NCBI GenBank assembly: GCA_963704725.1 | Contig: OY969934.1 | Span: 980,711-1,044,710 of the forward strand | Source: an uncultured Actinomycetes bacterium | GTDB taxonomy: Bacteria; Actinomycetota; UBA4738; HRBIN12 | Direction of reading: 5' to 3' | Length of the DNA stretch: 64,000 nt | Shown: positions 7,616-37,808 of the stretch, in pieces | How positions within the stretch are numbered: position 1 is the stretch's first letter | How the letters are laid out: the number at the start of each line of letters is the position of its first letter | The notes under the pieces: generated by a model | Told to the model about the DNA's origin: nothing | What the model saw: only the letters and a program-made list of their open reading frames with translations | The model's database searches: none | Program-made: the position numbers and the translations under genes

Positions 7616-7621
7616 TCCGGC

Positions 7622-14113: not shown

Positions 14114-14122
14114 GCTTCGCGC

Positions 14123-14761
14123 GTGGATCTCGACGAACCCGCCGAGCGCATCCGGCATCGCTTCGACGCCCGCATGGAGGCCCGAGAACGGGCGCTACCC
14201 GCCTCGCGCGCCGCGATCCGCTCGTGCGCGAACGCGATCCGGGCCATCCATCGGGGCGAGCTCGAGCTCGCGCATCGCTTGATGGACGAGGCGCGGGCCT
14301 CGCTCGACGCCGGCCTGGAGGCCGTCGCCGGCCATCCCGAGATCCGGTTCGCCGGGTACCTGCAGGACGCGCAGAAGGAGTACGCCGAGGCGCGCGTCAC
14401 GGAGGCCGTCGTGACCCGCGCCGACCACGTCCCCACCCCGGAGGAGCTCGCCGTCGAGGACGGCCCCTACCTCAACGGTCTGGCCGAGGCGGTGGGGGAG
14501 GCCCGTCGCCACGCCCTCGACCTGCTGCGGCACCGGCGGGTGGTGGAGGCGGAGGACGTGCTGCTCGCGATGGACGACCTGTACGCGGTGCTCGTCACGA
14601 TGGACTACCCCGACGCGATCACCGGCAACCTGCGCCGGAGCACGGACGTGGCCAGGAGCCTGATCGAGAAGACCAGGGGCGACCTCTCGGTGGCCAGGGT
14701 CTCGCAGGATCTGCACGACGCGCTCGAGCGCCACGCCCGCCAGGTGCTGAAGGAGGAGTGA
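14123..14761 (+). CDS. hypothetical protein, translin-family-like
   Basis: About 210-aa all-helical protein. PYLNGLAEAVGEARRHALD resembles the translin YLxGLxDxxGE motif. Tentative. Confidence 0.4.
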   Translation: MDLDEPAERIRHRFDARMEARERALPASRAAIRSCANAIRAIHRGELELAHRLMDEARASLDAGLEAVAGHPEIRFAGYLQDAQKEYAEARVTEAVVTRADHVPTPEELAVEDGPYLNGLAEAVGEARRHALDLLRHRRVVEAEDVLLAMDDLYAVLVTMDYPDAITGNLRRSTDVARSLIEKTRGDLSVARVSQDLHDALERHARQVLKEE

Positions 14762-14764
14762 GCG

Positions 14765-15214
14765 ATGGCCGTTCGCAAGGACAAGGTTCGTGAGCAGTAC
14801 CTGGCCGCCGTGCAGCAGCATCTGGAGCCGGGCGAGCAGCTCGTGACGGGTGCGTACGCCATCCAGGGGCCGAGCCCGCTGTGGGTGTCCGGCCTATTCG
14901 GGCTCATCGGCATGGTGGTGGCCAACGTCCGCTACTACTTCGTGTGGGTGACGGATCGCCGCGTGCTGTTCCTCAAGGGCTCGTTCTGGACGGCACGTCC
15001 CACGGGGTTCGCGTGGTCCGATCTGCGATCGGCCGTCCAGATCAACGAGGTCTCGCCGGCGATGACCTGGAGCTGGTTGCGCTACCACCGGCCCGCAGGC
15101 GGGAAGCCGATCCGGCTGAACTTCGCCCGACCCTGGCGCGACGAGTTCGGTCAGATCACCGCAGCGCTATCAGGGAGCGGCGCGTCCACGCCGCCCGCTC
15201 CGCCGCCGACCTGA
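14765..15214 (+). CDS. hypothetical protein (bacterial PH-domain-like?)
   Basis: 149 aa with a central hydrophobic hairpin. The ATG follows the upstream stop by 3 nt. Confidence 0.4.
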   Translation: MAVRKDKVREQYLAAVQQHLEPGEQLVTGAYAIQGPSPLWVSGLFGLIGMVVANVRYYFVWVTDRRVLFLKGSFWTARPTGFAWSDLRSAVQINEVSPAMTWSWLRYHRPAGGKPIRLNFARPWRDEFGQITAALSGSGASTPPAPPPT

Positions 15215-16830
15215 GCCCACGGACCGCTGGTACGCTTGCTCCTCGTCCCGGGGGTGTAGCTCAGTCCGGTAGAGCACTGCCTTCGCACGGCAGGGGTCGG
15301 CGGTTCGAGTCCGCTCACCTCCACTTTCAACGTCTTATTCGAACTCGGGCGAGAGAAGAGAGGCGCGAAGACCTCCGAGAACTCGGCCCGACCGATCTTC
15401 CGGTCCTTGATGTAGACGGCCTGGAGCACGGCGTCATTGAAGCGTCGTCGCACCAACGGTCGCGCCTTCAGATACGCGGCGTGGCAGTTCCCGGCGAGCC
15501 GGATGGCCGCTCGGAGCACCTCCTGCCAGCCCTCGAGGTCGCCCTCCGTCGCCTGGAGCTCGGCCTTGGCCGCATGCTCGGCGACGCCGATGCGATCCTG
15601 CTCCGACTTCAGGAGATCGAGCGGGATCGCGTTCGCGTAGAAGGCCTGCAGGAGCTTGCCGCGCTCGTCGGCCGCCTTGGCGAGCGTCCTGGTGAGGAGC
15701 ACCCGGCGCTCGGAGGCCTCGGCCTGCCGCTCGACGATCTCGGCCTCCAGCTCCTCGGTGAGCCGGCGTACCCATGAGGGTGGCAGCTGGATCCTCCCGT
15801 ACAGGTCCTCGATGAGCGCCTCGGCGTCCCCGGCCAGGATGTACGGCTGGCGGCACCCGGTCCGGGCTGAACCGCGCTGCCCGAGACAGTAGAAGTAGAG
15901 GTACTTGCCCTTGGCGAGCGTGAGCGACAGGCGCCTGCCGCACTCCCCGCAGTGCAGCAGCCCCTTCAGGTAGTGCTCGTGGCGGCGTTGGCGGACCCCG
16001 GCGACGTCGCGGGCCCGCAGAGTCTCCTGGACCCGGTCGAACAGGCTCTGGGGAATGAGCGCCTTGTGCTGGCCCGGATAGCGGGCGCCTCCCCACTGCA
16101 CGACCCCGAGGTAGAACGGGTTCGCCAGCATCTCGGCGAGCTTGGAGATCGAGACCGGAGCGCCCGGCCTTCTCGCGTACGGTGACGTCAGCCCCTTGGC
16201 GTGCATCGTGGCCTGGAGCTCGGGGAGCGAGCAGTCGCCGGTGGCGTACAGCCGGAACGTCTCTCGGACCAGCAGCGCCCGTTCGGGATCGAGGACCACC
16301 TTGGCGATGTCCTTGCCGGCCGTCTTCTCCCTGACGTTCAGGTAGCCGATGGGGGCCTTGGTCGGCCAGCCGCCCATCTTGGCCTTCTGGGTCATGCCCT
16401 TTCGGATCTCGCCGGCCAGGTTGGCCGAGTAGAACTCCGCCATAAGCGCGTGGATGCCCTCCACGAGGCGTCCGGAGGCCGTCTCCTCGATGTTCTCGGT
16501 CACCGAGACGAGCTGGACCCCCGCGTGGCGAAGTGCCGCCCTGATGGCCACGTGGTCCTCCATGGAGCGGGCCAACCGGTCGATCTTGTGGACGACGACG
16601 GCTCCGATCCCGCCCTCGGCCACCCGGCGGAGCATGGCCTTCAGCATGGGGCGGTCGGCCGTGCGGGCGGACTCGCCGGCATCGGTGAACTCGTCTGCGA
16701 GGTCCCATCCGCGCTCGGCGATGTGGCGAAGGCACGCCTCCCGCTGGGCGGGGATCGAGTAGCCCTCGCCGGCCTCGTCGTTGGAGGCCTGCTCCTTGGT
16801 GGAGACCCTGAGGTAGATCACCGCGTCCAT
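15151..16830 (-). mobile_element. large serine recombinase (integrase) of the tRNA-Ala-adjacent island
   Basis: N-terminal resolvase catalytic domain (MDAVIYLRVSTKEQ, active Ser in VYLRVS), then recombinase and zinc-ribbon domains (CGECGRRL). The ORF reads on through the antisense of the tRNA because there is no stop until 15151. Confidence 0.8.
15250..15323 (+). tRNA. tRNA-Ala (anticodon CGC)
   Basis: GGGGGTGTAGCTCAG...CTGCC-TTCGCAC-GGCAG...GGTTCGAGTCC...CACCTCCA folds as a cloverleaf. G3:U70 Ala identity pair is present, discriminator is A, and CCA is not encoded. Confidence 0.85.
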
Positions 16831-17065
16831 CGCTCGTCCTCCTCTTGGTCCTCCAGTGCCAGCGCCAGGTCGACCAGAGCCCGGGCCATCGGGCGCAGCG
16901 CACCCGGCTCGGGAGCATCCGGCCGGTCCACCCCCGGACGCGCAAGCGTAGTCCGGGCAGGTGTCGCTCCCAGGGCGTCGTGCTCGTCGGCCGAAGCCGT
17001 GTTGATCCGGTCGCGACGGCGATCGTGTTCACCCTCGAGTCCGCGCGCATTCGCGCGGCGCGGGG

Positions 17066-18052
17066 TCAAGGAGCATGTCGGGGCGGTAGGGCGCGGAATC
17101 GGGGTGTCGCTGCTACGGGAGAGATCCGACGACGGTGGCCGGCATCGGCATCAGTGAAGTACCGGCCGAGGCATCGTGCAGCCGGGTAGAGGTCACGAGG
17201 TCGGGCCGGCAGGTCGATTAGCGACAGGCGATCTCCGTCGGTGGCAAGGTGCTTCCAGGCGACTCCGAGCGCGCCGAGCTCGGTCAGTTGTTCCTCGCTC
17301 GCCACGTACAGCGGGAACGACGTTGCGAGCGAGCCCGAGATGTGCAGGCTTCCGACCGCGGCACGAAGTGCGGAGCCGACCTCCCCCTCGCGCACCCCCT
17401 CCGGGACGATGATGAGGAGATCCGGAAAGCCCGGAAGCTCCTGCTCCTTCGTCCACCCCGCCGCGAGGCGGAGGTAGCCCTCGAGCTTGCGCGAGAGCGC
17501 GCCGAACGCCTCGGTGCCGCGGTCGTACTCCAGGTAGAACTCGCACGTCCCGGCCGGGTGCAGGTACCGGCCGAACCCGTCGGGCTTGACCTCGGCGGCC
17601 CTCGTGCGGACCCAGTGCTCGGGCCGCCAGGTCACCAGACAGTGGCCCTGGAGGCCTCTGGAGGCCTCGGCGAGCGCGCAGAAGAACGCGTTGACCCCGA
17701 GGCGGTGGGCAAGCAGCAGGTTCGTCCGGTAGCTGTGATCGGGGACCCAGGGCAGTTCGGAGGCGCGGACGCCCTTCGCGTCGGCGACCTCGGCGAGGCC
17801 TGGCTTCGTGAGGTACCAGCAGGCGGGCGGCCTCCCCTCCCCGAAACCCCTCCCCACCGAGAAGGATGAGATGAGATCAAGATCTCTCAGTTCCTTGAGC
17901 CGGTGCTGGGCTCTCCTGAGCGATGCGAAGAAGAGGCTCTTGATCTGGTGGGTGGTGAGGACCTTGTGCTCGAGCAGGCTGAGGAAGATGGCGTGGTCTC
18001 GTTCATCGAGCGAGACCAGGCGGTGAAGGTCGTTTCGTTCTGCTCGAACCAT
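17066..18052 (-). CDS. replication-relaxation family protein (plasmid/ICE-type)
   Basis: ATG at 18052. N-terminal HTH (DHAIFLSLLEHKVLTTHQIKSLFF...) and overall Replic_Relax-like sense. The upstream part of the ORF is low-complexity. Confidence 0.55.
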   Translation of the reverse strand: MVRAERNDLHRLVSLDERDHAIFLSLLEHKVLTTHQIKSLFFASLRRAQHRLKELRDLDLISSFSVGRGFGEGRPPACWYLTKPGLAEVADAKGVRASELPWVPDHSYRTNLLLAHRLGVNAFFCALAEASRGLQGHCLVTWRPEHWVRTRAAEVKPDGFGRYLHPAGTCEFYLEYDRGTEAFGALSRKLEGYLRLAAGWTKEQELPGFPDLLIIVPEGVREGEVGSALRAAVGSLHISGSLATSFPLYVASEEQLTELGALGVAWKHLATDGDRLSLIDLPARPRDLYPAARCLGRYFTDADAGHRRRISPVAATPRFRALPPRHAP

Positions 18053-19004
18053 GTTCTGGGCACAGCTCCCCCCTCCTTCGGTGGGTGGCCTTCGGCCAAA
18101 CAACCCCGTGACCTGCGGTTTCGCGATCTGACGCCCTGTGCTCTCACGCCGCCCACGCGCCGTCGGTGCTCGCAGCACCCGGCTCCCAGGGACGGTCGCG
18201 AGCTCGCGCCAGGGCGCGCGGCCGCAACCTGCCGCCTTTCCGAGGATGTTCAGTTCGTGCCGATCCTCACCTCCTCTGCTCGCGCTCAGGCATGCTTCGG
18301 CAAGCGTCGGCCGGGATCGAATGCCGCCGAGCCGTCCGCGCTTTCGCCGCCTCACCCTCGCGCTGCGTCTGCCGGCACTCGGTCCTCGTCCGCCTCGAGC
18401 CTCCGGTCGTGCGCCTTGCCTCCTTCATCTCCGAGCTCGCCTCCCATGAGGTGCCCGGGTTCGGGGCTGCAGCGCTCCCGTCGGCTCTTGGCCTCGAAGC
18501 CCTTGCGTCCGCCTTGGCGTTCGCGAGGGATGACGGCGTCTTCGCATCCGGCCGGTGGTGACGATTCCTGCCTCCGCCGCCACGGCAACCCTGCTGGCGA
18601 ATCAAGTGCCAAGACGTGGCCATCTCCACCCCTACAAAGGCACCAGAGGGGCTCGGATCGTGTCGGCGAGGAGGGGCGAGTTCATGAGGAGCTTTCGGGG
18701 AGTGCAGGTCAGGAGGGGGTTGAGACTCAAAGAGGACCGGAGGGCTTGGGAGCAATAGGCCTCGACCTGTGCCCCGAGCGATAGCAGGTGCGGGATGGCG
18801 TCTCTGTCGATGGTGTCAGGTGGTCCATAGGCGCACCACCTGGTTCGACGCGCGACCAGGCGTTACGCGGCAAACGCCGGACCCTGTCCCCGATTGGGTC
18901 CCCTCAACGAGGGACCTTCGGACATGGGATCCGGCCCCAGGTTCGTGTTCCTTTACCGGACGCGGAGGGGGGCTCGCCGCAGCAGGCGGACGAAAGGAAT
19001 CGCC

Positions 19005-22000
19005 ATGCTGAAGCTGCGCCGTGCCTCTCACCACCTGGACGAGTCACGCTCCTGGCGCGCTCATCTACGTCAGGCGGCGTGCATTGCCAGCCTTGCCCTC
19101 ATCGCCGGAACGTTCCCTGCCGTGACCGCAACCGCCGACCCACAGGTGACGCCGGCGGACCAGCAGGTCCTCCTCGCCGAGCCCGGTCCTCCTCCCAAGG
19201 CCCTCACCGATGCCGACCGCATTCCTCCACTTGCCGCCCTGGACGAGGACGGTCAACGCAACCCGGAATCGGTTGCGCTCGTCCTGCCAGACGAGCTGGC
19301 GACGGCCTCGCCCGGTGACGAGACGGCCGATGCGAGCGCCCAGGGCATCGTCCCCGTGCCTGAGCAAAGCGCTCCCACCGTCGACGTGTTCGCGTTCGGC
19401 GATCCGGACGCCGCACACGCCGCCGTGGTCTCCACCGTCCCGGTGAACACACAGGCCGCGGACGGAACCTGGCAGGATGTCCAGCTCGCGCCGGAGCCCG
19501 GTCAGGGCTGGACGGCGACGATCCCCAACGGTTCGCTGCTGTTCCCGGAGAAGCTCACATCCGAGACCCCGGTTCAGGCCACGTTTGGGCCCTTCACGAT
19601 CGGCACGTCGCCCATCGAGTCCGACGCGAGCGCCGTCGGGGGCATCGTCGCAGATGATCGGCCCGGCTCGATCACCTATCCGGAGGTCCTGGTCGCGACG
19701 GACTTCGTCTACTCGGCCACGGCTGCGGGATACGAGGAATTCGTCGTCTTGAAGGACAAGAGCGCATCGTCGACCGTGTCGTGGACGATCGAGGCGCCGG
19801 GACTGGCGCTCGCGCTCGGCGAGGGCGGCGACATCGTGGTCCTTGACGGGAAGGACGCCGTCAGCGTCATCCCGCCGGCCGTGTCGTGGGACTCCTCCTT
19901 GCCGCCGCGGATCGACAAGGCGCCGTACACGTTGACGCAGACCGGCGAGGGGCGCTTCGAGATGGGCGTCGCTCTCGACCCCGCCTTCCTCGCCGCGGCC
20001 ACCTATCCGATCACGATCGACCCCGGATACCAGTACCAGTTCGCCCAGGACAACGACGACACCTACGTGGACTCGAGCACCCCCGATACCGACTACCGAG
20101 ATGCCTGGCTTCAGGTCGCAAACGGCGGCCCCGAGCGGCGGGCGTTCGTGCGCTTCGACACGGCCGACCTCCGGCGCGACGACCGCATCGTCTACGAGGC
20201 ACGGCTCGACCTGTACGTGTGGGAGGCGACGGAGAACGCCCCCGCCGTGGACGTGCGTCGCGCGACCCAGGCCTGGCCCGACCCGCTCACGTGGAACACG
20301 CAGCCGTCGGTGGATCCAGACGTCCTTGACTCGGCGAGCTGCGCGTTCTGCCTCGGGTGGATGAGCTTCGACGTCTCGGCCGCCTACCAGCACTTCCTGC
20401 AGAGCGACATCGCCGAGCCCTGGTCCGATGATGGACTTCGGGCCTCGACCGACGGGGCGACCTCGTACCTGTTCCGCTCCGCCGAGAGCGTCGGCGGGCC
20501 GACGCTCTCGCTTTCGTGGAACGACCTGCCGCACGCCCCCTTGCTCGACACCCCGGCGGACGAGTACGTCTTCGAGGACGACACGCCCACGCTGAAGGTT
20601 CAGGGCGGGCAGGACTGGCCGAGCGATCCGAACAGCGACGTCGTCCTCGTGCAGTTCCAGATCTCCGACGACGGGCAGGACTTCACCGGAAACCATATCG
20701 TCTGGGAGAGCCCGTGGCTCGACTCGCGTTCCTACGTCGTGCCCTCGGGGATCCTCACGGACGGCCAGACCTACTACTGGCGGGCCCGCTCGTGGGACGC
20801 CTGCTACTCGAGCCCCGCCTACCAGATGTGTTCGTACACGGACGCCCTCGGCGCCGAGCACGAGCGCAAAGCGACCGGCGTCCGCTCGTTCACCGTGGTG
20901 ATGAAGCACCTCGGCAAGGACGAGCGGTGGGCCATGTGGTCCCACGACCTCGGCAACGGCATGGACCTGAACGTGAACGAGTCAAACGGCAACCTGTTCC
21001 TGGACGTCCCCCTCGACTCCCTCGCCACCCCAGTGGGCGACCTCAGCATCGGCCTGTCGTACAACTCCCAGCAGGAGGCGGACTACGGCCTGTCGCCGGG
21101 CTGGGACGTCGCGATCGGGGCCGCCGGGTCGCTGCGGGATCTGCCGATCGATCTCGTCAAGCTGGACGACTTCCCCGACAACGGCGTGAAGGTCCGGTTC
21201 CGGGGTGGCCGGACCTCCTACTTCCCCCACCGCGATCACCACGTCTTCGCCACGGTCACCGCCGGGGCGGGCACCATCCGGCAGAACGCCGATGGTGGAT
21301 TCACGTTCGTGTCGCCGGGCGGCGACCGGTACGAGTTTTCACAAGCCGGCCGGCTCCTTTCGGCCAACCCGGTGGCCACGAACCTGGCCTCCGGCGCGAA
21401 TGCGATCAGCTACGTCTACAAGGAACCGAGCTCGACCACGTGACCGACCCTCTCGGCAGGCGGCTGGACCTGACGTGGGCGGGTGGCCAGCTCACCTCGA
21501 TCCAGACCTGGGCCGGTCAGGCCTGGACCATCGACTACAACCCGAACAACGGCCGGCTCCAGGACGTCTCGGTCCAGGTCACGAACCCGAGCACCACCCA
21601 GACGCGGACGGAGACGGTCGGCTTCTCCTACTTCATCGGGGCCCAACGCCCAGGAGGACTCCTTGCCGAGATCGACGACGGCGAGACGTTCACCGGCGGC
21701 CGTGACGGCTGGACGGTGGAGTACTCGGAGGACTCCGAAGAGAACTGGCGGGTCTCGACGCTCACCCCGCCGCCGGGCGGCGGGCCTGAGCCGCTCTCCT
21801 CCTGGGTCTTCCAGTACCTCGGCGACGTCATGGGCTCCACCGCGGCGACGGCGTGCGTGACCGACCCGCTGGGGACCGCGGACACGCAGGGTGAGATCAC
21901 CTGCGACCAGGCGCATCAGACGATCGTCGACTTCAACTGGGCGGGCTTTCCCGTCCGCATCGCGGGCCCCGCAGACCAGACGGGGTACTGGCCCGTCCGG

Positions 22001-25000
22001 ACCTTCGTGTGGGACTCGAACAACAACCTCCTCTGCCGGCGCGAGCCGGCCGCCAACGCCGTGAACGAGATCTCCGGCGCGAACCTGTGTCAAAGCGACA
22101 AGCTCTCGACCGTCTACGCCTACGAGTCGGAGGCGCCGTTCCGGCTCCTTGTGACGACGCATCCCTCCGCCAAGCCCGACGGGAGCTCGGAGCGGCTGAA
22201 GGACGCCTACCAGTACGACTCCGACACCAACGGCGCGAACTTCAACGGCCTGTGGGTGGAGAAGTACGAGAACGCCAACCTGTCCGGGATCCCGGCGGAT
22301 GAGTCCGTGTGGACCAACTTCGACGCGAACTGGGGGAGCGGCTCGCCGCCCGGACTCACCAGCACCGACGGGTTCAGCCTGAGGTGGACGGGGCTCATCG
22401 ACACGCGGTCGAGCTGGTACAACCTGGAGAAGGTCTTCTTCCGGATCACCACCGCGGATGAGGGCGTCACGCTCATCGTCGACAACAAGGTGCTCCTGGA
22501 CTGCTTCGGCACGACTCAGCCCGCCGGGACGTTCAACTGCGGCACGAACCAGGACGTGTTCAAGATGCTCGACGCCGGCCAGCATCCCATCACCATCGAG
22601 TACTCCGATCCCTCCGGTCTGGCCTCGTTCAATCTGCAGTGGATGGTGACGCAGGGGAGCTTCGGCCCGATCCCCACCTCCCGGCTCCAGACGAACCTCG
22701 GCCTGCTCACGCTGCAGCAGACCAGGCGCGTGTACTCAAGTGGCTCGGACGCCGCGTTCTTCCTGAAGACCGCCTACACCTTCCCCGACGACAACGCCAA
22801 GGCCCGGCACATCCCGGACTCGGTCGCCGTGACCGACCTGGACCCCAACCCTGACGTCGTCCGCAAGACCGCCTACACCTACAACGCCTTCGGCCAGGTC
22901 CGCACGACGACGACCGCCGCGGCGACCTCGCTGGCCGCGACGACCACGTACGACTACACGAACGAGGACCCGGTCTCGTGCCTGAGCTCCGTGGAGGAGC
23001 CGGACGGCGCCACGACGGAGTACGAGTGCGACGCGGCGGGCGATGTCACCCTAACCACCCAGATCGTGCGGACCGTTGCGGGAACGAACCAGACCGAGCA
23101 GGAGCGGTCGACATCGACCGAGTACGACACGCTCGGCCGCGTCACCTCGGTCACCTCGCCGTGGGGCGGATCCACGACCACGAGCTACGACCTCGCAGGC
23201 CGGGTCGCCACGGTCGATCAGTACCTGGGCCCCGGTGCCGGCCACGACGCCGATGCCATCACCGGGTACGAATACGACGACGCCGGGCATCTGCTCACCG
23301 AGACCCTGCCGGAGGTCGCGGACCCGGAGAACCCGGGCTCCGAGGTGGCCCCAGTGATCCAGCACGCCTACGACTGGCTCGACGACGAGGTCGGCACGAC
23401 CGACGTCCGCGGGCAGGAGTGGAGCTACGCCTACGACGCGTTCCGGCGCGTGATCGAGACCGAGAGCCCGTCCGGGCTCATCGCCGAGAGCGAGTACCGG
23501 CTGGCGAGCGCGCCGTCCGGTGGCACCGAGCAGCACCAGGTCACGACGTGGTCGCCTCCCGGCCACACTGGCGGCGTTCCGACCGTGACCGTCCTCAACC
23601 TGTTCGACCGACCCAGAACCGAGCAGACCGGCACCCTGGCGGCCCGCAGCTTCCTCTACGACGTGCAGAACAACGTCACGAGGGTCACCGAGCCCTCCGG
23701 CGTCTACACGACCTACTCCTACAATCGCTTCGGCGATGAGACGTCGATGTCGGAGTACCAGCTGCTGGCCACGACGACGTACGCGTACGACGCGGCGGGG
23801 CGTTTGCAGCGGGTCGACGGGCCGCGGGTCTCGACCGACGCCGACGATTCGGTCAACTACGCCTACGATGAGCAGGGCCGACTGGAGACGGTGACGCAGA
23901 ACGGGATCACGCTGCCCGGCGCCTCCTCACCCGGCGTGAGCACGACGTATGTGTGGAACGACGCCGACGAGCGGATCCAGGTCGTCCAGCCCATGAGCAC
24001 GACGCAGACGATGGTCCGCGACTGGATGAGCGATCCGGCCTCGGGCACCTCCACGTACGAGGACGCCCGGGGAACGACGACCTCGACCCACGACCTCTCG
24101 GGGCGGGTCACGAGCGTGGACGACCCTCGCGGCATCACCCTGCACTTCGAGTTCGACAACCAGGGCAGGCTGATCCGGCGCTACGGCGAGGACGGCCAGA
24201 CCACCGTCGACGACCAGAGCCTCGGATACGACCTGGCGGGCAACCAGATCTCGGCGACGGTGGTCGCCGCGAACACGACGATCGCGACGGACTTCGACGA
24301 CGACGGACGGGCGTGGCACGTCTACCAGGACAGCTACCCGAGCCCCACGACCACCTACGCATACGATCCCTCCACCGGCCGACCCTCCTCGATCACCGAT
24401 GCGGCGGGGACCACGTCCTACGCGTTCAACGCCAACGGCCTGCTGGCCGAGGTCACCGATCCGTTCGCCTCGACCCACGTCGTCTACGGGTACGACGCCT
24501 ACGGCCGCGTGACCAAGCGAACCGACGGGAGCGGGCTGTGCTGGACCCAGACGTATGACTCAAGGAGCGGCCTGCCCGACATCCGGCGCATCCGCCAGGG
24601 CGGCACCGGCTGCGGCGGTACGGTGCTCGCCACGTTCGACCTCGGCTTCGACAAGGCGGCGAACGTGCTGAGCCGTTCCGAGACGATCACCGGCAACTCC
24701 TTCGGCGGCAACTACACGTACACGTACGACGGGGCGAACCGGCTGATGAGCGTGACCGGCCCCGCCGCCTTCGGCTCGCGGACGTACGCCTTCGACGGGG
24801 CGTCCAACCGAACGAGCGTCCAGGTCGGCACCGGCACGCCCACCACGACCAGCTACGACGACGCCGGCCTGCCCACCACGTCCTCCGACGGCACCACGTA
24901 CACCCACGACGCCTCGGGCGACCTCACGGGCATCGACCGGCCGGGCACGGCGAATGACTGGCTGTACGGCTACAGCTCCTGGAACCAGCTCGAGGTGGCC

Positions 25001-26221
25001 GAGCACACCCAGGGTGCCGCCGAGGTGACCTACACCCTGGACGCCCTGGGCCGGGTGCTGTCTCGGACCTCGGGCGGGACCACGGCCTCCTACACCTACC
25101 AGGGCACCGGCGAGAGACTTGCTAGCGCGAGCGTGGGTGGGACGACGACAATGTACGCGTACGTGCCGTCCGGCCCGCTCGCCGAGCGAACGGGGACGAC
25201 CACCCGCTACTACCTGCGTGATCAGCACGGGGACACCGTAGGGTTGGCCAACACCTCGGCCGCCCTTGCCGGGACGAGGCTGTATGACCCGTGGGGGGAG
25301 GCGCTGCAAGGGACTGGAGAGATGGCGACGGCGCCGGCACAGGGCTCGCTCGGGTTCCAGTCCCAGCTCACCGACGCCTCGACCGGGCAGGTCGACATGC
25401 TCACGCGGATGTATGAGCCGGGGCTCGGACGGTTTAGCTCCAGGGATGCGCTGTTTGGTGACGCATCAAACCCCGTTTCCCTGAACCAGTTCGGCTACGG
25501 ATCCGCAAGCCCCGTGACCCTGTCCGATCCGACCGGACTATATCCAGTTGGGTACGACGGGTCCGGAGGGGACTGCGGAGATGCGTGCGCCAACCCTCAG
25601 CAGTACGGCTACAACAGGGGTGATCCGCCATCCGTGAACGCTCCCGATCCCCTCCCTCCAGCATCGACACAGATGCCGACAGTTACGGTGGACTGGACGC
25701 AGACCCGAACAGCCGAGGGCTGGTCGCCGTACATTGTTGGGGAAGATTTCTTGACTGCGTTTGCCCGCTTTATCACTGGGTGGAGTTGCGAACTCGAGGG
25801 ATGCGCGCCAATCAACCCCGGTTCAATCGGTGTTGGTGTCGTGGCACAACTTACTTACCGGAGCTTCATGCGAAGCAGACCCAATGGTTGGCAACTCTCG
25901 ATTCTCGTTGTCGCCGACACACGTCGCCTGAACCCCGAATCAGGTTTTGAGCTTCAGTCCCTAGAACTGCACATCCGGGGCAAGGGGGGCGCCCAGCTTC
26001 TGGGGAGCTATTCGAAGGAGTATGTCACGACAGCCGATGGCCCTGGCTACCTGTACCACGTCCATGTCGCAACTGGCTCTCCTCAACCCGCGACGATCGT
26101 CGCCTCGGTTACGGCAGGGCCAAGTGAAGGAGCGGCAGGTCCCATCGAGGCCGTGACGCAGGTCTACTTCGACCCAATGCCGACTGGGCCCTTGCCGCCG
26201 CAAGAGATTCCACCATGGTAA
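19005..26221 (+). CDS. RHS/YD-repeat polymorphic toxin with signal peptide, PA14-like insert and variable C-terminal toxin domain; interrupted by a frameshift near 21420-21443
   Basis: ATG at 19005 with AAAGGAAT upstream, and a signal-peptide-like N-terminus. There are dozens of YD repeats (YxYDxxGRL, VTDPLG...). PA14-like segment GLWVEKYENANLSGIP...ITIEYSD. RHS core end MYEPGLGRFSSRD...DPTGL sits at about 25526-25540, followed by a roughly 225-aa low-GC tip. Confidence 0.85.
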
Positions 26222-26241
26222 CGACTAAGGGGAGCAGACCT

Positions 26242-27051
26242 ATGGGAGTCCGGACAGTGGGGATCTTGCTCATGACGGGTGCAGCATTGATGACAGCTTG
26301 TGCGAGGGACGGTCGTGTCATCGCGCCCGCGGCTGCCTTGCGGTCGAGCGTGCTTTCGTGTACGGCGGGATCAGCTGGATCCAAAACGGTTGCCATCGAG
26401 TTGGAACCGACTCCCCAGACCCCGCCGGCTGTGGCCGCGCTCATCCCCCACCTCCGGCTCTCCAGCTATAACTACAGATCGTCCTCCGCACCAGCCGCCG
26501 ATGCGACATCGGTACTGCCGGTTCCACTCCCGTCGGGGGCTGGCAACGTCCTCGATCTGTCGACAACGGATGCATCGGTTCAAGATGCGCCGCCGCCAGT
26601 TGCGCTGATTCCGACCGAGGGGAACCGATACGCGGATCTGATCCTCGCGGGCTTGCTAATGGTTCACGAAGCCGAGATTGCATTGAGGGGCGACTCACTC
26701 GAAAGGCTCCTTGGGGTGTCGGTGGACATGCCGATCGGAACCGCAACCGTAAATGACGTCCACATTGCGGGAGAGCAAGTGACCGTGACCGTCAGTTTGG
26801 ATTGGGTCGACGGTCTCGGCGGCAGTTCTGCATTTCAGCCGAGAGTGAGCATCGTGCCTGCCTTTGGACCTGGAGGCGCACCTCTCGGGGATATCGGCGT
26901 CGATTTCAATGGCGCGTCGAGTCAATCACTGCGCTTTCGCTTGCCAGTTGGGCGTCAAGATGATCCAGTCGCTCTGCGCTTGAGCGATTTCGGCGTCGAG
27001 TACGCGGCGTCCGTGCGCGTCACAGGCATCGGGCAAGCATGCGGGGGATGA
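26242..27051 (+). CDS. lipoprotein encoded immediately downstream of the RHS toxin tip (candidate cognate immunity/partner protein)
   Basis: ATG with AAGGGGAG RBS 20 nt after the rhs stop. Signal peptide plus lipobox (LLMTGAALMTAC). Same low GC as the toxin tip. Confidence 0.5.
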   Translation: MGVRTVGILLMTGAALMTACARDGRVIAPAAALRSSVLSCTAGSAGSKTVAIELEPTPQTPPAVAALIPHLRLSSYNYRSSSAPAADATSVLPVPLPSGAGNVLDLSTTDASVQDAPPPVALIPTEGNRYADLILAGLLMVHEAEIALRGDSLERLLGVSVDMPIGTATVNDVHIAGEQVTVTVSLDWVDGLGGSSAFQPRVSIVPAFGPGGAPLGDIGVDFNGASSQSLRFRLPVGRQDDPVALRLSDFGVEYAASVRVTGIGQACGG

Positions 27052-27084
27052 GTCCCCGAGTCCGGGGTGGCCGAGCGCACCCAG

Positions 27085-27260
27085 GACGACTTGACCTGCG
27101 CCCTGGACGCGCTGGGTTGGAAGCTCACGCGGACCTCGGGGTGACCTTACGGGTACACACGCCAGGGGACGAGAAGACTTGGCCGGCGCGGGGGTTGGGT
27201 GGGACGACGCCCAACTATCCGCACATGCCGGCGGGCGGACTCGCCAAGCAGTCCTAGGCT
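27085..27260 (+). pseudogene. vestigial RHS core fragment (orphan rhs remnant)
   Basis: Nucleotide similarity to 25010-25200 of the main rhs gene (...ccctggacgc.ctggg...cggacctcggg...gggtgggacgac...). Broken by stops and frameshifts. Confidence 0.5.
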
Positions 27261-27491
27261 GTCGGTCAAGATCACATCGCTAACTCGCCCGCGCTAAGGA
27301 CGGAGTTGAGGAGTCGGCCCACCGCACCGTCGCACTCATGCATCGAGGTCCACGTCCGTGATCAGCCTTCGGACCTGGGCCACCAGAATGCGCCAGGAGT
27401 TCGAGTAGCGTCCCTTCAGGTCCACGCGACCTTCCGGTGCCGGTCTTCGTGTCTGCGAGCGGAAGGGCACCGGCCGAACATCGCGGGGTCG

Positions 27492-28783
27492 CTAGGGACC
27501 CAGGAGCGCGGCGGGGACGACCCCTATCCCGTCACGTCGGCGGTACGCGGCATCGCCAGTGCTTACGACGACAGCGTCGAGCAGATCTTCGCCTATCCGA
27601 TCACGCAACCACAGAAGGTCCCGAACGTCGTCGTCGCGAATGGTCTGCGCCAGCTTCACCTCGATGCCGACGACCCGCCCATCAGCGCGCTCGATGATGA
27701 GATCGACTTCATGCTCCCCTGAGGCGGTGCGAAGGTGTCTCGTCGTGGCTTCGGCCGCCTGCGCAAAGACACGAACGTTGAGCGTCACGAGGGACTCGAA
27801 CAGCGAGCCGAGGAACGTCCCGTCACGCGGGATCGGTGGACCAACGGGTTCGGCCTCGAGGAGGGCCTGTCGATCGATGCCGAGCAGCCGTGCCGCTAGG
27901 GCGGGGTCGAGGAGCTGGTGCTTCGGGGGGACGAGAGGCGTCGCAGATGGCTGCGAGTCGGGAGCCATGCCGGCACCGGATCGACGATCCATAGCCTCTC
28001 GAGCACGGTGCGGTAGGGAAGCGTCGCCTTTCGGGTCGGCTTCTCGGTCTCTCCACTTGTCGCCGCATCTCGGATCTTCTCGAACGAGGTCGTCGTCGAG
28101 GAGGCGGCTGCGTATGCGGTCATCCAGCTTCGGAGCGTCTCCGGTCTGCGCACCCGATGACCCATCTCATCGAAGTCGTGGTCGACGATGCGCTGCAGAT
28201 AGCCATCGAGTTGAGACCGAAGCGCACGGCCGGAGAGACCGCGCAGCCCCGGGAAGCCTGAGGCGAGTATCTCGTCTACGTAGTCTTCGAGTCGAAGCCT
28301 GGTGCTGCCCTCCAGGTCAGGACGCCTTCCTCCGAGGATCTCGCTCAGGCTGACCGTTGGCGTCGCGATCTCGCGCTCCGGGAGGGTCATCGTTCGCAGC
28401 CGGACCGTGACGATCCGCGCCGCACCCGAGTGAGTTGATGGCTTCTCGGGAGAGGCAGATCCGGTCAGCAGGTATGAGGCGGGGCGCTCGGTTCCGTGTT
28501 CGTCGACCGCACGGCGAACGAGATCCCACGATTCCGGCAGTCGTTGCCACTCGTCGATGAGCACCGGAGGAGGGCCGTCCAGCAACCGATGTGGGTCCGC
28601 CACCGCAACGCTGTACTGCGACGGATCGTCGAGGCGGTGGATGGTCGCCGCCCGCCGAGAGGCCGTGGCCGTCTTCCCGACGGCCTTGGCTCCTTCCACG
28701 GCGATGGCAGGGAGCTCACGCAGCAGTTCGTCGAGCTCATCGTCCACGATGCGCCGGATGTACCGGTCGACGGTGTCTGTCAT
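27492..28783 (-). pseudogene. AAA_14 / DUF4143 ATPase gene split by a -1 frameshift in a homopolymer run
   Basis: N-terminal ORF 27896-28783 carries a P-loop (GAKAVGKT, Walker A). C-terminal ORF 27492-27992 is the DUF4143 part (PKHQLLDPALAARLLG...EVDLIIERADGRVVGIEVK). The frames can be joined at the run G6 (27925-27930, plus strand). Confidence 0.6.
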
Positions 28784-28990
28784 GTGCGAAGGATACTACT
28801 AGGACGCCTAGAAGGCTACAGAAATGACGAGCACTGGGGAACAGAACGGTCGACCTCTGGTTCCGCGCACCGATCGATCAAACGACGACGGCCACCTGGG
28901 AGAACACGAGGGCGTTGCCTCAGACCAGCGATGGCCCGTAGACAAGCCGCGGCATCCGGTCCGAGCTGCCCGGGGCAGTCGCGAAACAGG

Positions 28991-30163
28991 TCACCTGTTG
29001 AGTTGTCGAGCCAGGTCCTCGAACATGTCGGCGATTTCGATGCGGGAAAGCCCTTCAGGCATCCCCATGGCAGGTCCGTACGCCAGGTTCAAGAAGCAGC
29101 CGAGCACCACGTCGACCTCCGATGCGTCCGCGTCAAGGGAATGCCACGAAGCGTAGTCGCCAGCCGGCTTCGGCTCCCGACGAAGACGCGGAGAGAAGGC
29201 CCGCGCCGTATCCACCTTGCCGACCAGGACATCGAACTCGTCTTCGCCCAGATCATCGATGGTGTGGTCAGTGACTCTCGCCCACGTTTCGAAGAGCTCC
29301 GGGCTGCCTCGCAACTCGAAGGCCTTGGGCGCGAGCTCCATGGTGGTACGTGCGACTTGGAGCGCTTCCCGTAGCACGTCTCGGGCGCCGAGACGTGATT
29401 GCATCCGGCTCCGATGGAGACCCTGGGCAATGAGAAGCGCCGTGGCGCCATCGCGCGCTTGCAAGTCCGGATCGGCGCCGTTCGCCAGGAGGATGCAGAC
29501 GACCGAATCATGACCCCGCTCCACAGCGTGCATCAAGGCTGTCCGACCTGCCTCATCCATTGCGTTTGCGTCGGCGCCCGCTTGGAGCAGCGTATCGATC
29601 CCTGCCGGGTCGTTGAGTCGAGCAGCGAGGACAACGATCGGCGTGCCGTCTCCTCGTCTCTCGTTGGGATCTTCCCTACCTGAGAGGAGGACTCTGAGGA
29701 CCGCTGGCACGGCCGTGTGCTCGACCGCGCCGACGATCAGCGGTTCCTCTCGAGGCAGAGCCGCCGCGCCAGCGCCCAAGAGTGCTTCGAGGATCTTGAC
29801 CTTCGACCTCGAATCGGGCGGGGGACGGAGGATCTCGTGAGCGATGCTTCCGCGCTTGTCTCCGAAGTTGGGGTCAGCGCCATGCTCGAGGAGAAGGGAC
29901 ACCACTTCGGCGTGACCGTGGATCGCTGCCGCTCGAAGAGGCGTCCACTCGCGGCCGCTGACCGAGTCTGGAGATGCCCCAGCATTGAGAAGCAGCCGAA
30001 CGATCTCGACCGCTCCGTCCTGAGCCGCTATGGCGAGTGCTGTATTGCCTCGCGGCGGCGCGGGAAGATTGGGATCGGATCCAGAGCGGAGAGCGCGACC
30101 GACCCCCTCCAGGTCGTTGGCTCGAACAGCGTCCACGAGTTCGTCGCTTTCCACAAGAACCAT
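28991..30163 (-). CDS. ankyrin-repeat protein
   Basis: At least 5 ANK repeats (GNTALAIAAQDGAVEIVRLLLNAGASPD; WTPLRAAAIHGHAEVVSLLLEHGADPN; GRTALMHAVERGHDSVVCILLANGADPD ...). Lower GC than the chromosome background. Confidence 0.7.
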   Translation of the reverse strand: MVLVESDELVDAVRANDLEGVGRALRSGSDPNLPAPPRGNTALAIAAQDGAVEIVRLLLNAGASPDSVSGREWTPLRAAAIHGHAEVVSLLLEHGADPNFGDKRGSIAHEILRPPPDSRSKVKILEALLGAGAAALPREEPLIVGAVEHTAVPAVLRVLLSGREDPNERRGDGTPIVVLAARLNDPAGIDTLLQAGADANAMDEAGRTALMHAVERGHDSVVCILLANGADPDLQARDGATALLIAQGLHRSRMQSRLGARDVLREALQVARTTMELAPKAFELRGSPELFETWARVTDHTIDDLGEDEFDVLVGKVDTARAFSPRLRREPKPAGDYASWHSLDADASEVDVVLGCFLNLAYGPAMGMPEGLSRIEIADMFEDLARQLNR

Positions 30164-30257
30164 CCTAGCGTCGCGTCTCGGGGGTTTGATTACCGTCCGC
30201 TAAACCCCCCTTTCAGCGTGGCAGGCGCGGCCGTCGGGTCGGCCTCCGCCGGGGCAA

Positions 30258-30635
30258 TCAGTACGGAGCCCGCAGCCCCTCGATCATGGGGAAGTGCCGC
30301 ACATTCGTGGTGAGCAGATCTGCCTCGAAGACGATCGCGGTTGCGGCGATCAAGTAGTCGGCGTCGTCGATGCCACTGTGGCTGCGCCTGAGGCGGTGGG
30401 CGAGGGTGCCGGCAGTCCTGCCGATCTCCTCATCGATCGGCGCCCACTCGAGCGAGGAGAAGAATGCCTCCAAGGCCTTCATCTCGGCCTTCCGAACGCC
30501 GGCCAGCAGCTCGAACCGCGTGATCTCGCTTGCGACGAGGGTCTCACCTTCGGAGATCAGGCCGGTGAGCAACTGCGTGGCGGTCGACGCGCCTCGGAGG
30601 TGATCCACGGCGATCGTCGTGTCGATGAGCTTCAC
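30258..30635 (-). CDS. vapC: PIN-domain toxin VapC
   Basis: 125 aa, [15 protein letters not shown]... with acidic PIN residues. Overlaps the vapB stop by 4 nt. Confidence 0.8.
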
Positions 30636-30892
30636 TCGAGGCCGACGCGCCGAAGCCGCTCGTTCAGGTCACCGCGCAAAGCATCCACGTACTCCTCCCC
30701 GGTGAAGCGCCTTCGCTTCCAGCTTGCCGCGCTTCGACGGAGACCCTCCAGGCGGGCCTCCTGCGATGGCTCGCCGAACGTCCTCTGGATCGCGCGACGA
30801 ATCAACTCGGATCGTGAAGCACCGGTCTCCGTGGCCACCTGATCGAGCAGCTCCAGCTCATCCTGACCCAGGTAGACCTGTGTCCGTCCCAT
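30632..30892 (-). CDS. vapB: VapB antitoxin (ribbon-helix-helix/CopG-like)
   Basis: [35 protein letters not shown] has an RHH fold sense. Operon-coupled to vapC. Confidence 0.65.
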
Positions 30893-30968
30893 GCCGCCAC
30901 TATACACCACATGGTGTACCGGTCTGAATGCGTCGGGTTCGGGCTACGGATGGACGACGGCGGCGCGA

Positions 30969-33032
30969 TCACGGTTGATCGACGGGCGGTTCCTGCTCGC
31001 TCGGCGGCTCCGGGAGACTCGAGGACGGCGGCTCCGGTGCCGGCCTGCGCCTGCGGCGCCGTGGCTCGACCTGCTCCGGCAGATGCTTGCCGTCCGCGCC
31101 GGAGGCGGCGAGCGTGCGCATGAGCACGGCGGCGAGACCGTCCAGGCTGCCGCCTCCGCCCGTTACGAGGACATCCGGCATGACGTCGACCTGACCCTCC
31201 GCGATCGCGTTGATCGCGTTGACGATGGCCGTGGCCGGCCCGCCGAGGGCCTTGCGCTGCTCGTCGAAGCCCCTGGCCCGGGCCAGGCCCAGGGCCTCGG
31301 TGGCGCTGGCGTTGGCTCCTCCGATCGCCTGGATCTTGGAGGCCTCGGCCTGGCCGGTGAGCTTCACGTAGGCGGCCTCGCCCTCGCCCTCGGCCTCGCG
31401 CGCCTGAGCCTCGTTGCGGCGGATCTCGACCCCGACCTGGGCCTGCGCCAGCCGCGCCTGCATCTCAGCCGTCCCCTTGGCCTTCTCCATCTGGACCCGC
31501 TCGGTCTGCGCGCGCTCCTGCTCCTGGAACGTCGCCTTCTCTTGGTTGGCGATCTCCCGCTGGGTCAGGACCCGAACCAGCTCCTCCGGGAACGCGACGT
31601 CCTGGATGTACACACCCTTCGTCTCGACCTCGTACGTGGCGAGGTAGGTCCGGATCGAGGCCAGCGCCTGCTCCTGCACCGACTGGCGGGTCTCGATGAA
31701 CGTGACCGCCGGCAGCCCCTGCAGCTTGTCGCGGAAGTGGTTGCCGACCGCCGACTGCAGGACCTCGTTGACGAGGTTGAGCATGGTGCCGACCATCGAG
31801 ATGACCTTGGGCGCCCGCGTGTCCGGCACGTGGATCTGGACCTGCAGGTCGATCGTGAAGACGAACCCCTCCCGGCTCTTCGCCTCGATCGGCTTGAGGT
31901 TCGCGTCCAGGTTGTGGGCGAGAGAGCTCGCCTCCGCCCAGTTCAGCGTGAGGATCGCGGTCGGGACGATCTCGGCCGCGTAGATCCGGCGGTTGATCGC
32001 GTACTTCCCGGTGCGCAGCGGCTCCTGCCAGATGCCGCGGTGCCCGGGTCGCACGAGCGAGCCGAACTTGAACTCGTCACCGGAGGTGTCGAGCGTCGAG
32101 AGCCCGACGTACGCCTTGATCACGGCGACCTCGCCCTGGTTCACGACGAGCATGGGGGTCATCTCGACCCGGACCAGGAACGGGTTCAGGAGGTAGGCGC
32201 CGTACAGGAGCGGGTCGTGCTGCAGGCCGATCTTGCCGCCGCCGTCCAGGAAGGCCTGGAAGTCCTGGTAGTTGTTGTGGAGGTTGTTCTTGCTGCCGAG
32301 CAGCGCCTCGATGACCTCGCCGTCGGTCGGGTTGCCCGCCTCCATCTCGAGGATGTCGGCGAAGCCGCCCAGCCGGTTGGCGATGTCGCCGGAGTCGAGC
32401 GGATCGCCCTCCAGCGTCGTGACGATCCCGATCTGGTCGACGTCCCCGTACGGCGCGATCACGACCACCCGGAGCTGATCCGGTTGCAGGCCGAACGACT
32501 CGGCGGCGAGCCCCTCATGAGAGGCGACCGCGGCGAGATCCGGGGAGACCGGCAGTCCGTAGACCGCGCCCCGCGTGATGACGAGGAAGCCCACCGGGTG
32601 GATCGGCACCAGCGTGCCCGGGGGCAGGACCGGCCTCTGCACGCCCTTCTGCCCGGCGTTGCCCACGAAGCTCTTCAGGTCGGAGAAGTTCGCGAAGATC
32701 GTCTTGTACGCCCCGCTTTTGGCCCCGATGGGAAGGGGCGCTCCGACCTGGGCGATCACGACGCCGATCTCGCCCGCGGGGACCTGGACCCACGGGAACT
32801 TGCTCACGCTGTACACCGGCCACGGCTTGATCCGGATCCCCGGCATGAGGAGGTCGGCCTGGTATCCGGCCTCGCCGGCGAAGGCGATGGGGTTGTCCTC
32901 GGCGAGCTTGCGCCGCGCGAAGTTCTTCTTCACCAGGCCCACCTGCGTGGCGCCGATCAGGTGGAACGACTTCATGAACACGATGAGCACGAGCAAACCG
33001 ACGACCCCGATCGCGATCCAGGTGGCGACCAC
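30969..33032 (-). CDS. SPFH/Band-7 flotillin-like protein
   Basis: N-terminal TM helix, SPFH domain, then a long EA-rich coiled coil (EQERAQTERVQMEKAKGTAEMQARLAQAQVGVEIRRNEAQAREAEGEGEAAY). Flotillin/YqiK-like. Confidence 0.8.
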   Translation of the reverse strand: MVATWIAIGVVGLLVLIVFMKSFHLIGATQVGLVKKNFARRKLAEDNPIAFAGEAGYQADLLMPGIRIKPWPVYSVSKFPWVQVPAGEIGVVIAQVGAPLPIGAKSGAYKTIFANFSDLKSFVGNAGQKGVQRPVLPPGTLVPIHPVGFLVITRGAVYGLPVSPDLAAVASHEGLAAESFGLQPDQLRVVVIAPYGDVDQIGIVTTLEGDPLDSGDIANRLGGFADILEMEAGNPTDGEVIEALLGSKNNLHNNYQDFQAFLDGGGKIGLQHDPLLYGAYLLNPFLVRVEMTPMLVVNQGEVAVIKAYVGLSTLDTSGDEFKFGSLVRPGHRGIWQEPLRTGKYAINRRIYAAEIVPTAILTLNWAEASSLAHNLDANLKPIEAKSREGFVFTIDLQVQIHVPDTRAPKVISMVGTMLNLVNEVLQSAVGNHFRDKLQGLPAVTFIETRQSVQEQALASIRTYLATYEVETKGVYIQDVAFPEELVRVLTQREIANQEKATFQEQERAQTERVQMEKAKGTAEMQARLAQAQVGVEIRRNEAQAREAEGEGEAAYVKLTGQAEASKIQAIGGANASATEALGLARARGFDEQRKALGGPATAIVNAINAIAEGQVDVMPDVLVTGGGGSLDGLAAVLMRTLAASGADGKHLPEQVEPRRRRRRPAPEPPSSSLPEPPSEQEPPVDQP

Positions 33033-33157
33033 GAAGACCCCTTTCGACCGACCTCACCGCTCGCGACGCGCGCCGAGCCGCACGCATGCCTTTCGATGCA
33101 ACAACGTACTCCGTCCGGCGGGTGGCCGCCGAGGTGCGAACCCGATCGTCGATCAGC

Positions 33158-37734: not shown

Positions 37735-37808
37735 CCCGTCGGATTGCGGAACGAGGGGCGGATCCCCAGGGGATCCGCCCCTCGTTCGCGTTCAGCTGCT
37801 GGCCGGTG

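Follow-up and report, generated by a model that had tools for sequence, protein, structure and literature searches.

In SCCmec (CcrAB/CcrC), serine-recombinase cassettes stack at a single site, the 3' terminus of a conserved housekeeping gene, and in some mycobacteriophages the phage attachment site, attP, lies within a gene whose product is truncated by integration; we use both cases as analogies only. Serine integrases have been described as not known for tRNA-gene targets (PMC4383910), and the TIGER survey of Mageeney et al. placed 14 of 297 serine-integrase islands at tRNA or transfer-messenger RNA (tmRNA) genes, with a request for experimental proof (PMC7192596). Our searches of a literature collection returned no later description of serine integrases targeting tRNA genes. 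Here we describe a candidate for such a system in 64,000 nucleotides of an uncultured Actinomycetes bacterium (GTDB lineage Bacteria; Actinomycetota; UBA4738; HRBIN12; GenBank assembly GCA_963704725.1, contig OY969934.1, positions 980,711 to 1,044,710 of the forward strand). This whole stretch is called the window below; its G+C content is about 72%, and its sole tRNA gene is a tRNA-Ala(CGC). With good confidence, we read the DNA that follows this tRNA as two layers at an insertion hotspot: a 12.1-kb serine-recombinase element (15320-27425) laid over an older segment (27426-39288).

For comparison we took 80 syntenic loci from metagenome-assembled genomes of related soil Actinomycetota, anchored on MoeA (11608-12870), in which the relatives are at most 87% identical to the window. 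Their core order is g09 (14123-14761), g10, tRNA-Ala, proDH, tag, aldehyde dehydrogenase, aminotransferase and YceI; the tRNA gene keeps its syntenic position after the same flanking genes in about 30 relatives, and the run from tRNA-Ala through proDH to tag is seen across loci L001-L013. An original prediction, made from the letters of the window, had recommended a search for the empty site among relatives, and locus L013 supplies it: tRNA-Ala ends ...CTCACCTCCA, the ATG of proDH (proline dehydrogenase) follows 3 nt on, and the junction reads ...CTCACCTCCACCCATG. Homology of the window to the relatives breaks at 15324 and returns at about 39290, where the right junction reads ...CACCGACCTCCATGAAC and the proDH start codon occupies 39289-39291. 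Because the tRNA of L013 stands directly before proDH, we read 15325-39288 (24 kb) as inserted relative to the empty site and proDH as a core gene. The flotillin, YciI, sigma-Calx, bglB and proDH genes had been left as either core or cargo; those from flotillin to the glycoside hydrolase family 1 (GH1) gene are accessory, since the total insertion runs to 39288, and proDH is core. In other relatives, unrelated genes (an ABC transporter, DUF2807, DUF6328, an S24-like protein among them) fill 0.9-7 kb between tRNA-Ala and proDH, so that the interval is an insertion hotspot, here with two layers of inserted DNA. Islands of other types occur at this tRNA-Ala in two loci: right before proDH, L009 retains 17 nt of the tRNA 3' end (~8645-8667), and L011 has two complete tRNA-Ala(CGC) copies 2.6 kb apart (13702-13778 and 16367-16443). 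At the right junction of the window, the proDH ATG (plus strand) and an in-frame ATG of the GH1 gene (39290-39288, minus strand) overlap in a palindromic CATG. When metagenomes were scanned with ProDH, identity reached at most 71%, which brought no closer relatives, and none of the matches lay next to a tRNA. Look-ups of two proteins of the window by exact sequence returned nothing.

The left attachment site, attL, became apparent from ten genomic contexts of recombinase homologues (recombinases 77-92% identical). All ten elements share the arm that we call P' (TTTCAACGTCTTATTCGAACTCGGGCG, 15325-15352 in the window) up to ...GAAAGTGG on the recombinase strand, ending GTGG, and then turn into host-specific sequence; the stretch common to all of them before this divergence reads ...GAGTTCGAATAAGnnnnTGAAAGTGG. 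As the elements diverge there into the host tRNA, the crossover should lie where the acceptor stem has its final base pairs (TCCAC, 15320-15324). The T-arm and the 3' strand of the acceptor form the B half-site of the target, the bacterial attachment site attB, with the T-loop motif GTTCGAG at 15303-15309, and the tRNA-Ala itself is host-derived and intact after insertion.

The right attachment site, attR, was found through a 92-nt match between 27335-27426 and the far side of a homologous element (L081). From 27394 to 27430 the window reads CAGGAGTTCGAGTAGCGTCCCTTCAGG-TCCAC-GCGACC, that is, a P arm in the correct orientation, the same TCCAC core as at the tRNA and, from 27426, the B' half-site, which is the former trailer of the tRNA. 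The P arm contains GAGTTCGAGTAG, which repeats GAGTTCGAATAAG of the recombinase-side arm in inverted orientation. The same arm recurs in other elements: L148, which has a recombinase 77% identical and sits at a tRNA-Glu, ends in GTAG-ACCTGAGGGGACGGTATTCGAACTCCTGGC with a core that matches its own attL and a total length of 7.65 kb; in L081 the P arm stands beside a decayed copy of the recombinase 3' end; and in the metagenome contigs L152 and L151 the recombinase 3' end is joined straight to the P arm as an uninterrupted attP. When the two arms of the window are joined, the rebuilt attP is GAGTTCGAGTAGCGTCCCTTCAGG-TCCAC-TTTCAACGTCTTATTCGAACTC, 51 bp long, with the inverted-repeat arms and the short core shared with attB that mark an attP of about 50 bp. 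Because the arms of attL and attR bound it, the recombinase element proper appears to span 15320-27425; attL and attR share just 5 bp. The original prediction had held that the far boundary could not be fixed from the sequence and had put it between vapB and the second integrase. The inverted-repeat arms that it suggested searching for do exist, at 15325-15352 and 27394-27420, and they end the element around TCCAC at 27425, before the ATPase gene. Two candidates were discarded along the way: a reading of 27335-27426 as the terminal part of an IS256 transposase gene (its domain stops earlier and is in another frame), and the top match of a first scan for an inverted P' at 42.98 kb, which is a low-complexity GAAGTTGAAAGA repeat beside the iteron-like repeats of a second element and no attachment site.

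The spacing of the arms points in the same direction. The P arm looks like a tRNA T-arm with five extra bases (GGGA-CGCTA-CTCGAAC against GGGA-TTCGAAC), and TCGAAC keeps a fixed offset from the core within each class of arm: 11 nt in the tRNA-like targets (all six), 16 nt in the P arms (all five) and 14 nt for P'. For the Listeria integrase, Rutherford et al. (2013, PMC3783163) described a motif bound by the zinc-ribbon domain (ZD) that in attB lies 5 bp nearer the crossover than it does in attP. The spacings of 11 and 16 nt match this published shift, with the tRNA as the putative attB-type half-site.

How far the element reaches could also be read differently. A single island of 24 kb (15325-39288), moved as a unit by the recombinase at 15151-16830 with ACCTCCA (39283-39289) as its attR, would agree with the absence of the entire 24 kb from the L013 empty site and with the tRNA-end copy of 7 nt that coincides with the right junction. 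We find this improbable, given that a complete P arm with the right core, the right orientation and an in-frame recombinase tail lies at 27394-27425, and that the 28 nt to the left of 39289 are unlike the P arm and occur in no other element; 39262-39289 is moreover asymmetric with P' and was rejected as a P arm. ACCTCCA by itself scores at the background median of a local-alignment scan and has no significance as a genome-wide match; its significance is positional only, as it marks the right limit of all inserted DNA, and it could be a leftover of an earlier insertion into the tRNA end. In the window there is no further copy of the 25-nt tRNA 3' end at up to 3 mismatches, and the only tRNA-end copies are the 5-nt TCCAC at 27421 and the 7-nt ACCTCCA at 39283. 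The 12.1-kb element thus has no displaced tRNA fragment at its far end of the kind by which Islander-type tDNA islands are recognised.

Base composition suggests yet another limit. The DNA does become AT-richer after tRNA-Ala, as had been noted: G+C averages 0.732 in the left core but only 0.673 across 15325-27420, with a minimum of ~0.61 at 26-27 kb, against a core reference of 0.722 +/- 0.022 in 2-kb windows. It is 0.651 in 27.4-30.9 kb, the first 3.5 kb of the older segment with its ATPase, ankyrin and VapBC genes, and a core-like 0.718 in 31-39.3 kb, where G+C at third codon positions (GC3) is 0.93-0.95. The original prediction had drawn from this one compositional island from 15250 to ~30910, with vapBC as the last cargo and an undefined far end, and G+C indeed stays low (0.61-0.69) to ~30.9 kb before it rises to 0.70-0.75 with a core-like GC3. 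As a mobile unit, this island is hardly credible: attR lies at 27425, the genes of 31-39.3 kb are likewise absent after the tRNA in all relatives, and composition tells how old a piece of DNA is or where it came from, but does not delimit a mobile unit. What holds of it is that accessory DNA begins right after tRNA-Ala; the units are the element (15320-27425) and the total insertion (15325-39288). Similarly, the serine recombinase can be kept as the integrase of the element, and the ATPase, ankyrin and vapBC genes are not its cargo, because the element ends before them.

In the two-layer reading, attP lies inside the recombinase gene. In the integrated form, residues 1 to ~502 are encoded by the element (15325-16830), and residues ~503-559 are read antisense through tRNA-Ala and the host flank, with a tail ...KVEVSGLEPPTPAVRRQCSTGLSYTPG..., until a stop codon is reached at 15151. 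Once attP is rebuilt, the open reading frame (ORF) instead runs on in frame as KVDLKGRYSNSWRILVAQVRRLITDVDLDA for 29 codons, up to a stop codon. The tails of L148 and L081 agree with this one in length and stop position and have conserved residues; nucleotide identity is 58-72% in the tail and ~30% past the stop, and third codon positions hold an excess of the differences. A tRNA-antisense tail (motif G[FIL]EP, from the T-arm) terminates at least 75 of the 120 best homologue clusters, and an attP-type tail another 8-10. Since attP is inside the gene, integration would swap the last 29 residues of the recombinase for a tRNA-antisense tail, and such a C-terminal swap appears well supported by these comparisons. 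That it serves a regulatory role, in stability or in directionality, is speculation.

Taken together, we propose that the recombinase would bind an attP of ~51 bp, an imperfect inverted repeat GAGTTCGAGTAG...TCCAC...CTTATTCGAACTC that overlaps the 3' end of its own gene, and an attB of which the left half is the T-arm and acceptor 3' strand of tRNA-Ala. The T-loop TCGAAC would act as the ZD motif, 5 bp nearer the crossover than in attP. Strand exchange would take place at a dinucleotide within TCCAC, most likely CC at 15321-15322 (tRNA positions 71-72) or an adjacent one, because the symmetry centre and the shared cores (TCCAC in the window, CTAC in L148) point there. The tRNA would be left intact, and the last 29 codons of the recombinase would be detached to 27336-27425, their place being taken by the tRNA-antisense tail.

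The recombinase has many homologues at 85-92% identity, with matches that end at about residue 510. Nucleotide homology with the other elements extends to 18487-18717, so that the conserved backbone is only ~3.2-3.5 kb (15320 to ~18487-18717 in the window) and comprises the recombinase gene, the Replic_Relax gene and a few hundred bases. Replic_Relax always adjoins the recombinase in L081-L090, L148, L150 and L151. The cargo varies: a PAS kinase and ParA in L083, K+ transport genes in L089, Abi_C, MUG113 and PIN in L148, and an RHS gene in L150. The last is a sister element (2430-8152) at a tRNA-Ala(GGC), with a recombinase 87% identical and an RHS gene only ~25% identical to that of the window, and RHS cassettes have therefore been gained repeatedly as cargo in this family. 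As for targets, tRNA-Ala(CGC) with the host's own T-arm variant (two variants) is used in the window, L018 and L082-84, tRNA-Ala(GGC) in L150, tRNA-Glu(CTC) in L148, and a 22-nt tmRNA-like 3' fragment in L085 and L086. In L081 (4590-4680, 11506) and L089 (11510, 14095-14197), recombinase elements stand beside attP-like junctions and beside a 103-nt fragment of a recombinase 3' end near the tmRNA gene, a sign that the tmRNA locus holds tandem or decayed arrays. The arm next to them (GGTGCGCGAACC) matches that of a distant recombinase (28% identical) which sits at tRNA-Ala in L020. When IMG/VR was scanned with each of the two recombinases of the window, no close relatives appeared.

The past mobility of the recombinase module is not in doubt. 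The module might, however, by now be fixed, vertically inherited and immobile, with the att-like arms as decaying scars. Such a relic would sit well with the frameshifts in the RHS cargo and in the neighbouring ATPase gene, with the loss of the native recombinase tail, with our failure to find a recombination directionality factor (RDF) and with the decayed or tandem copies in L081 and L089. We think it rather unlikely, though it deserves more weight than the two other alternatives. The recombinase has an unbroken ORF that includes the catalytic motif, the two att arms are close in sequence to those of related elements, and close homologues sit at other tRNAs with other cargo. Furthermore, the module is present in just 2 of the 80 syntenic relatives and is 84-86% nucleotide-identical to L018 and L082, about 12 points above the flanking core genes (70-74%).

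Several points weigh against the two-layer reading and the mechanism proposed with it. No excised circle or empty attB of the same species was found, the closest relatives being only ~87% identical in MoeA. The P arm at 27394-27425 could conceivably have been left by a former tandem copy, as in the tandem or decayed arrays of L081 and L089, and the higher identity of the recombinase could come partly from a stronger constraint on the gene. No recombinase motif can be recognised in the B' half-site (from 27426), the sequence of which varies from host to host, and the arms are asymmetric by 1 nt around whichever dinucleotide is chosen. The RHS gene is split by a 1-nt frameshift at ~21412-21416, a single-base slip in AAGGAACC. 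Finally, we identified no RDF in the element and no origin of transfer (oriT), for which no aimed search was made.

Regarding the gene content of the element, the genes named in the original prediction (recombinase, Replic_Relax, RHS, AAA_14/DUF4143, ankyrin, vapBC) were all confirmed by Pfam, and the features of the window are listed in Table 1. The recombinase has the architecture of the large serine recombinases, a resolvase-type catalytic domain with the nucleophile motif (PF00239, E=1.4e-35, residues 3-155; YLRVSTKEQ at residues 6-14) followed by Recombinase (PF07508, residues 182-274) and zinc-ribbon (PF13408, residues 288-342) domains, and its catalytic domain matches the TP901-1 integrase 3bvp (E=2.5e-13). 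Replic_Relax might act as a relaxase; it has no homologue with a solved structure, and a plasmid search gave just two weak matches, both of chromosomal size. Pfam detected no VirB4, VirD4 or FtsK-like gene in the 12-kb element; we regard it as integrative and probably mobilizable. The partial ORF upstream of Replic_Relax matches a 282-aa protein of L081 in two pieces at 54-79% identity. The main cargo combines CBM96, PA14, RHS repeats (PF05593) and Rhs_assc_core, with a C-terminal tip of ~225 aa that has no family match in Pfam or NCBIfam. The ORF that overlaps the RHS stop codon likewise has no match in these two collections and is, from its position, a candidate immunity protein; the orphan rhs fragment behind it looks like the remnant of a displaced rhs 3' module. 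The frameshifts of the RHS and ATPase genes, the latter within a C6 run near 27940, may be assembly errors, and neither gene is therefore taken as a proven pseudogene.

The segment at 27426-39288 holds no integrase. None of its genes has a homologue after the tRNA in any of the 80 relatives, and 27.4-39.3 kb gave no nucleotide match among 147 loci. It is the older of the two layers and stood directly after the tRNA before the 12.1-kb element arrived. Its VapBC pair has the expected arrangement, with the gene of the ribbon-helix-helix (RHH) antitoxin overlapping the downstream PIN toxin gene by 4 nt. The extracytoplasmic function (ECF) sigma-Calx-beta gene is a single ORF of 1066 aa with N-terminal ECF sigma-70 regions 2 and 4 followed by five Calx-beta domains, an unusual architecture and perhaps a sigma/anti-sigma-like fusion with an extracytoplasmic part.

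Beyond proDH, a second insertion (40225-49413) occupies the interval to tag, which measures 9.2 kb here and 0.8-2.1 kb in L001, L004 and L013. Its integrase, already noted in the original prediction, is also a large serine recombinase. The insertion looks like a phage satellite or an element akin to the phage-inducible chromosomal islands (PICI-like), with a 14/15-nt direct repeat at 40225-40238 and 48577-48591 as tentative ends. Three 22-bp tandem repeats (GAAACCGGCGCAGGATCGGCCG) followed by two copies of GAAGTTGAAAGA lie at 42892-43005, within the 3' part of the replication-initiator-like gene; their iteron-like arrangement makes them a possible origin for the second element. Further on, ~480 nt of the plus strand (48595-49075) fold with a minimum free energy of -281 kcal/mol against -249 +/- 6.6 kcal/mol for shuffled sequences (z = -4.9), and contain a T-arm-like hairpin and a perfect 14-bp terminal hairpin. 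Rfam gave no match at E<=1 in 48.4-49.5 kb, and the folded stretch has no ARAGORN match and no homology in related loci; it is perhaps a structured RNA of an undescribed kind. On the plus strand at 55944-56030, upstream of an ORF at 56086-56553, lies a c-di-GMP-I-GGC riboswitch aptamer (RF03167, 64.6 bits, above the gathering score).

Table 1. Positions, strands and supporting evidence of the features of the window
Feature	Position	Strand	Evidence or remark
Large serine recombinase ORF, integrated form, 559 aa	15151-16830	-	Pfam Resolvase, Recombinase, Zn_ribbon_recom
tRNA-Ala(CGC), putative integration target	15250-15324	+	ARAGORN; Rfam RF00005, 66 bits
attL	15298-15352		B arm, core TCCAC (15320-15324), P' arm
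Replic_Relax (PF13814), candidate MobC-type relaxase or replication protein	17066-18043	-	Pfam, E=3e-34
Backbone remnant or partial ORF, upstream of Replic_Relax	18265-18716	-	tblastn
RHS/YD polymorphic toxin gene, main cargo	18894-26221	+	Pfam; TIGR03696, TIGR01643; frames 18894-21443 and 21401-26221
278-aa ORF overlapping the RHS stop codon	26215-27051	+	ORF list
Orphan rhs core-end fragment	27087-27250	+	Repeat search: 74-78% identical to 25021-25187
Detached native recombinase 3' end	27336-27425	-	Encodes VDLKGRYSNSWRILVAQVRRLITDVDLDA and stop; in frame once attP is rebuilt
attR	27394-27450		P arm CAGGAGTTCGAGTAGCGTCCCTTCAGG (27394-27420), core TCCAC (27421-27425), B' from 27426
Predicted excision junction, attP			...GAGTTCGAGTAGCGTCCCTTCAGGTCCAC|TTTCAACGTCTTATTCGAACTC...
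Predicted excision junction, restored attB			...GAGTCCGCTCACCTCCAC|GCGACCTTCCGGTGCC...
DUF4143/AAA_14 ATPase, frameshifted	27492-28783	-	Pfam; DUF4143 27492-27992, AAA_14 27896-28783
Ankyrin protein	28991-30163	-	Pfam
VapC, PIN (PF01850)	30258-30635	-	Pfam
VapB, RHH (PF01402)	30632-30910	-	Pfam
SPFH/flotillin	30969-33032	-	Pfam
YCII	33158-33757	-	Pfam
ECF sigma-Calx-beta fusion	33646-36846	-	Pfam
Hypothetical ORF, 189 aa	37165-37734	+	
GH1 beta-glucosidase	37809 to ~39290	-	Pfam
ACCTCCA, 7-nt copy of the tRNA-Ala 3' end, abutting the proDH start	39283-39289	+	Sequence; L013 comparison
Proline dehydrogenase, core gene	39289-40224	+	Pfam Pro_dh; synteny in L001-L013
Second large serine recombinase	40330-41616		Pfam
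HTH_17 excisionase-like gene, second element	42124-42321		
Replication-initiator O-like gene, second element	42481-43149		
Small terminase subunit, second element	44097-44708		

What this locus adds is a target at the level of base pairs, together with the same design in dozens of homologue clusters and at several tRNAs. Judging from the sequences of independent elements, a specificity for tRNA ends and an attP inside the integrase gene would be shared features of the family, and the T-loop as a ZD motif at attB-type spacing offers a possible structural rationale. We tentatively suggest, as a possibility that we would not yet call probable, that soil Actinomycetota harbour a large clade of serine integrases devoted to tRNA and tmRNA-like ends, in which the T-loop would serve as the ZD motif, the gene would span attP and the tail swap would mark the integration state; to our knowledge, no clade of serine integrases specialised on tRNA ends has been described. 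Island finders based on tRNA fragments miss such elements, because no tRNA fragment stays behind, and the share of actinobacterial accessory DNA that they make up is for this reason probably under-counted. Integrases with a conserved tRNA end as attB could become integration tools for uncultured or hard-to-engineer Actinomycetota. In this genome, the RHS toxin is mobile cargo.

Compared with the large serine integrases of phages (A118/LI, phiC31, Bxb1, TP901-1), the recombinase has the same order of Resolvase, Recombinase and Zn-ribbon domains, and its sites share the attP of ~50 bp with an imperfect inverted repeat around a non-palindromic centre, the attB motif 5 bp nearer the centre, here on the tRNA half-site, and the few bp common to attL and attR. 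It differs in that the phage enzymes use coding or intergenic targets, whereas this family uses the 3' ends of tRNA or tmRNA-like genes; here attP also lies inside the integrase ORF, with a C-terminus changed by integration, the carrier is a small non-phage element, and just one half-site of attB, the tRNA, is conserved. The streptococcal Class_IME_8 elements combine a serine integrase with a PF13814 protein, which Coluzzi et al. (2017, PMC5357655) count among the MobC relaxases. Like them, the element has its integrase at one end facing outward, PF13814 as the sole transfer-type gene, a small size and variable cargo; unlike them, it has a high-G+C soil actinomycete as its host, a tRNA as its target and no coupling protein, whereas Class_IME_8 elements carry a VirD4 coupling protein and insert in protein-coding genes, often of integrative and conjugative elements. 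With the Islander-type islands of tyrosine integrases it has in common the position on the 3' side of a still-functional tRNA, and the reuse of a hotspot with older islands pushed outward, of which L009 and L011 are examples, but the enzyme family and its chemistry are different, no displaced tRNA fragment is present, and only 5 bp are shared between the ends. The resemblance to SCCmec lies in serine-recombinase islands at the 3' end of a conserved gene, piled in tandem. The target there is, however, rlmH/orfX, often with two recombinases and without a relaxase, and although the best NCBIfam partial matches of our recombinase are CcrB and CcrC, its 118 bits against a cut-off of 900 make it a non-member of those families.

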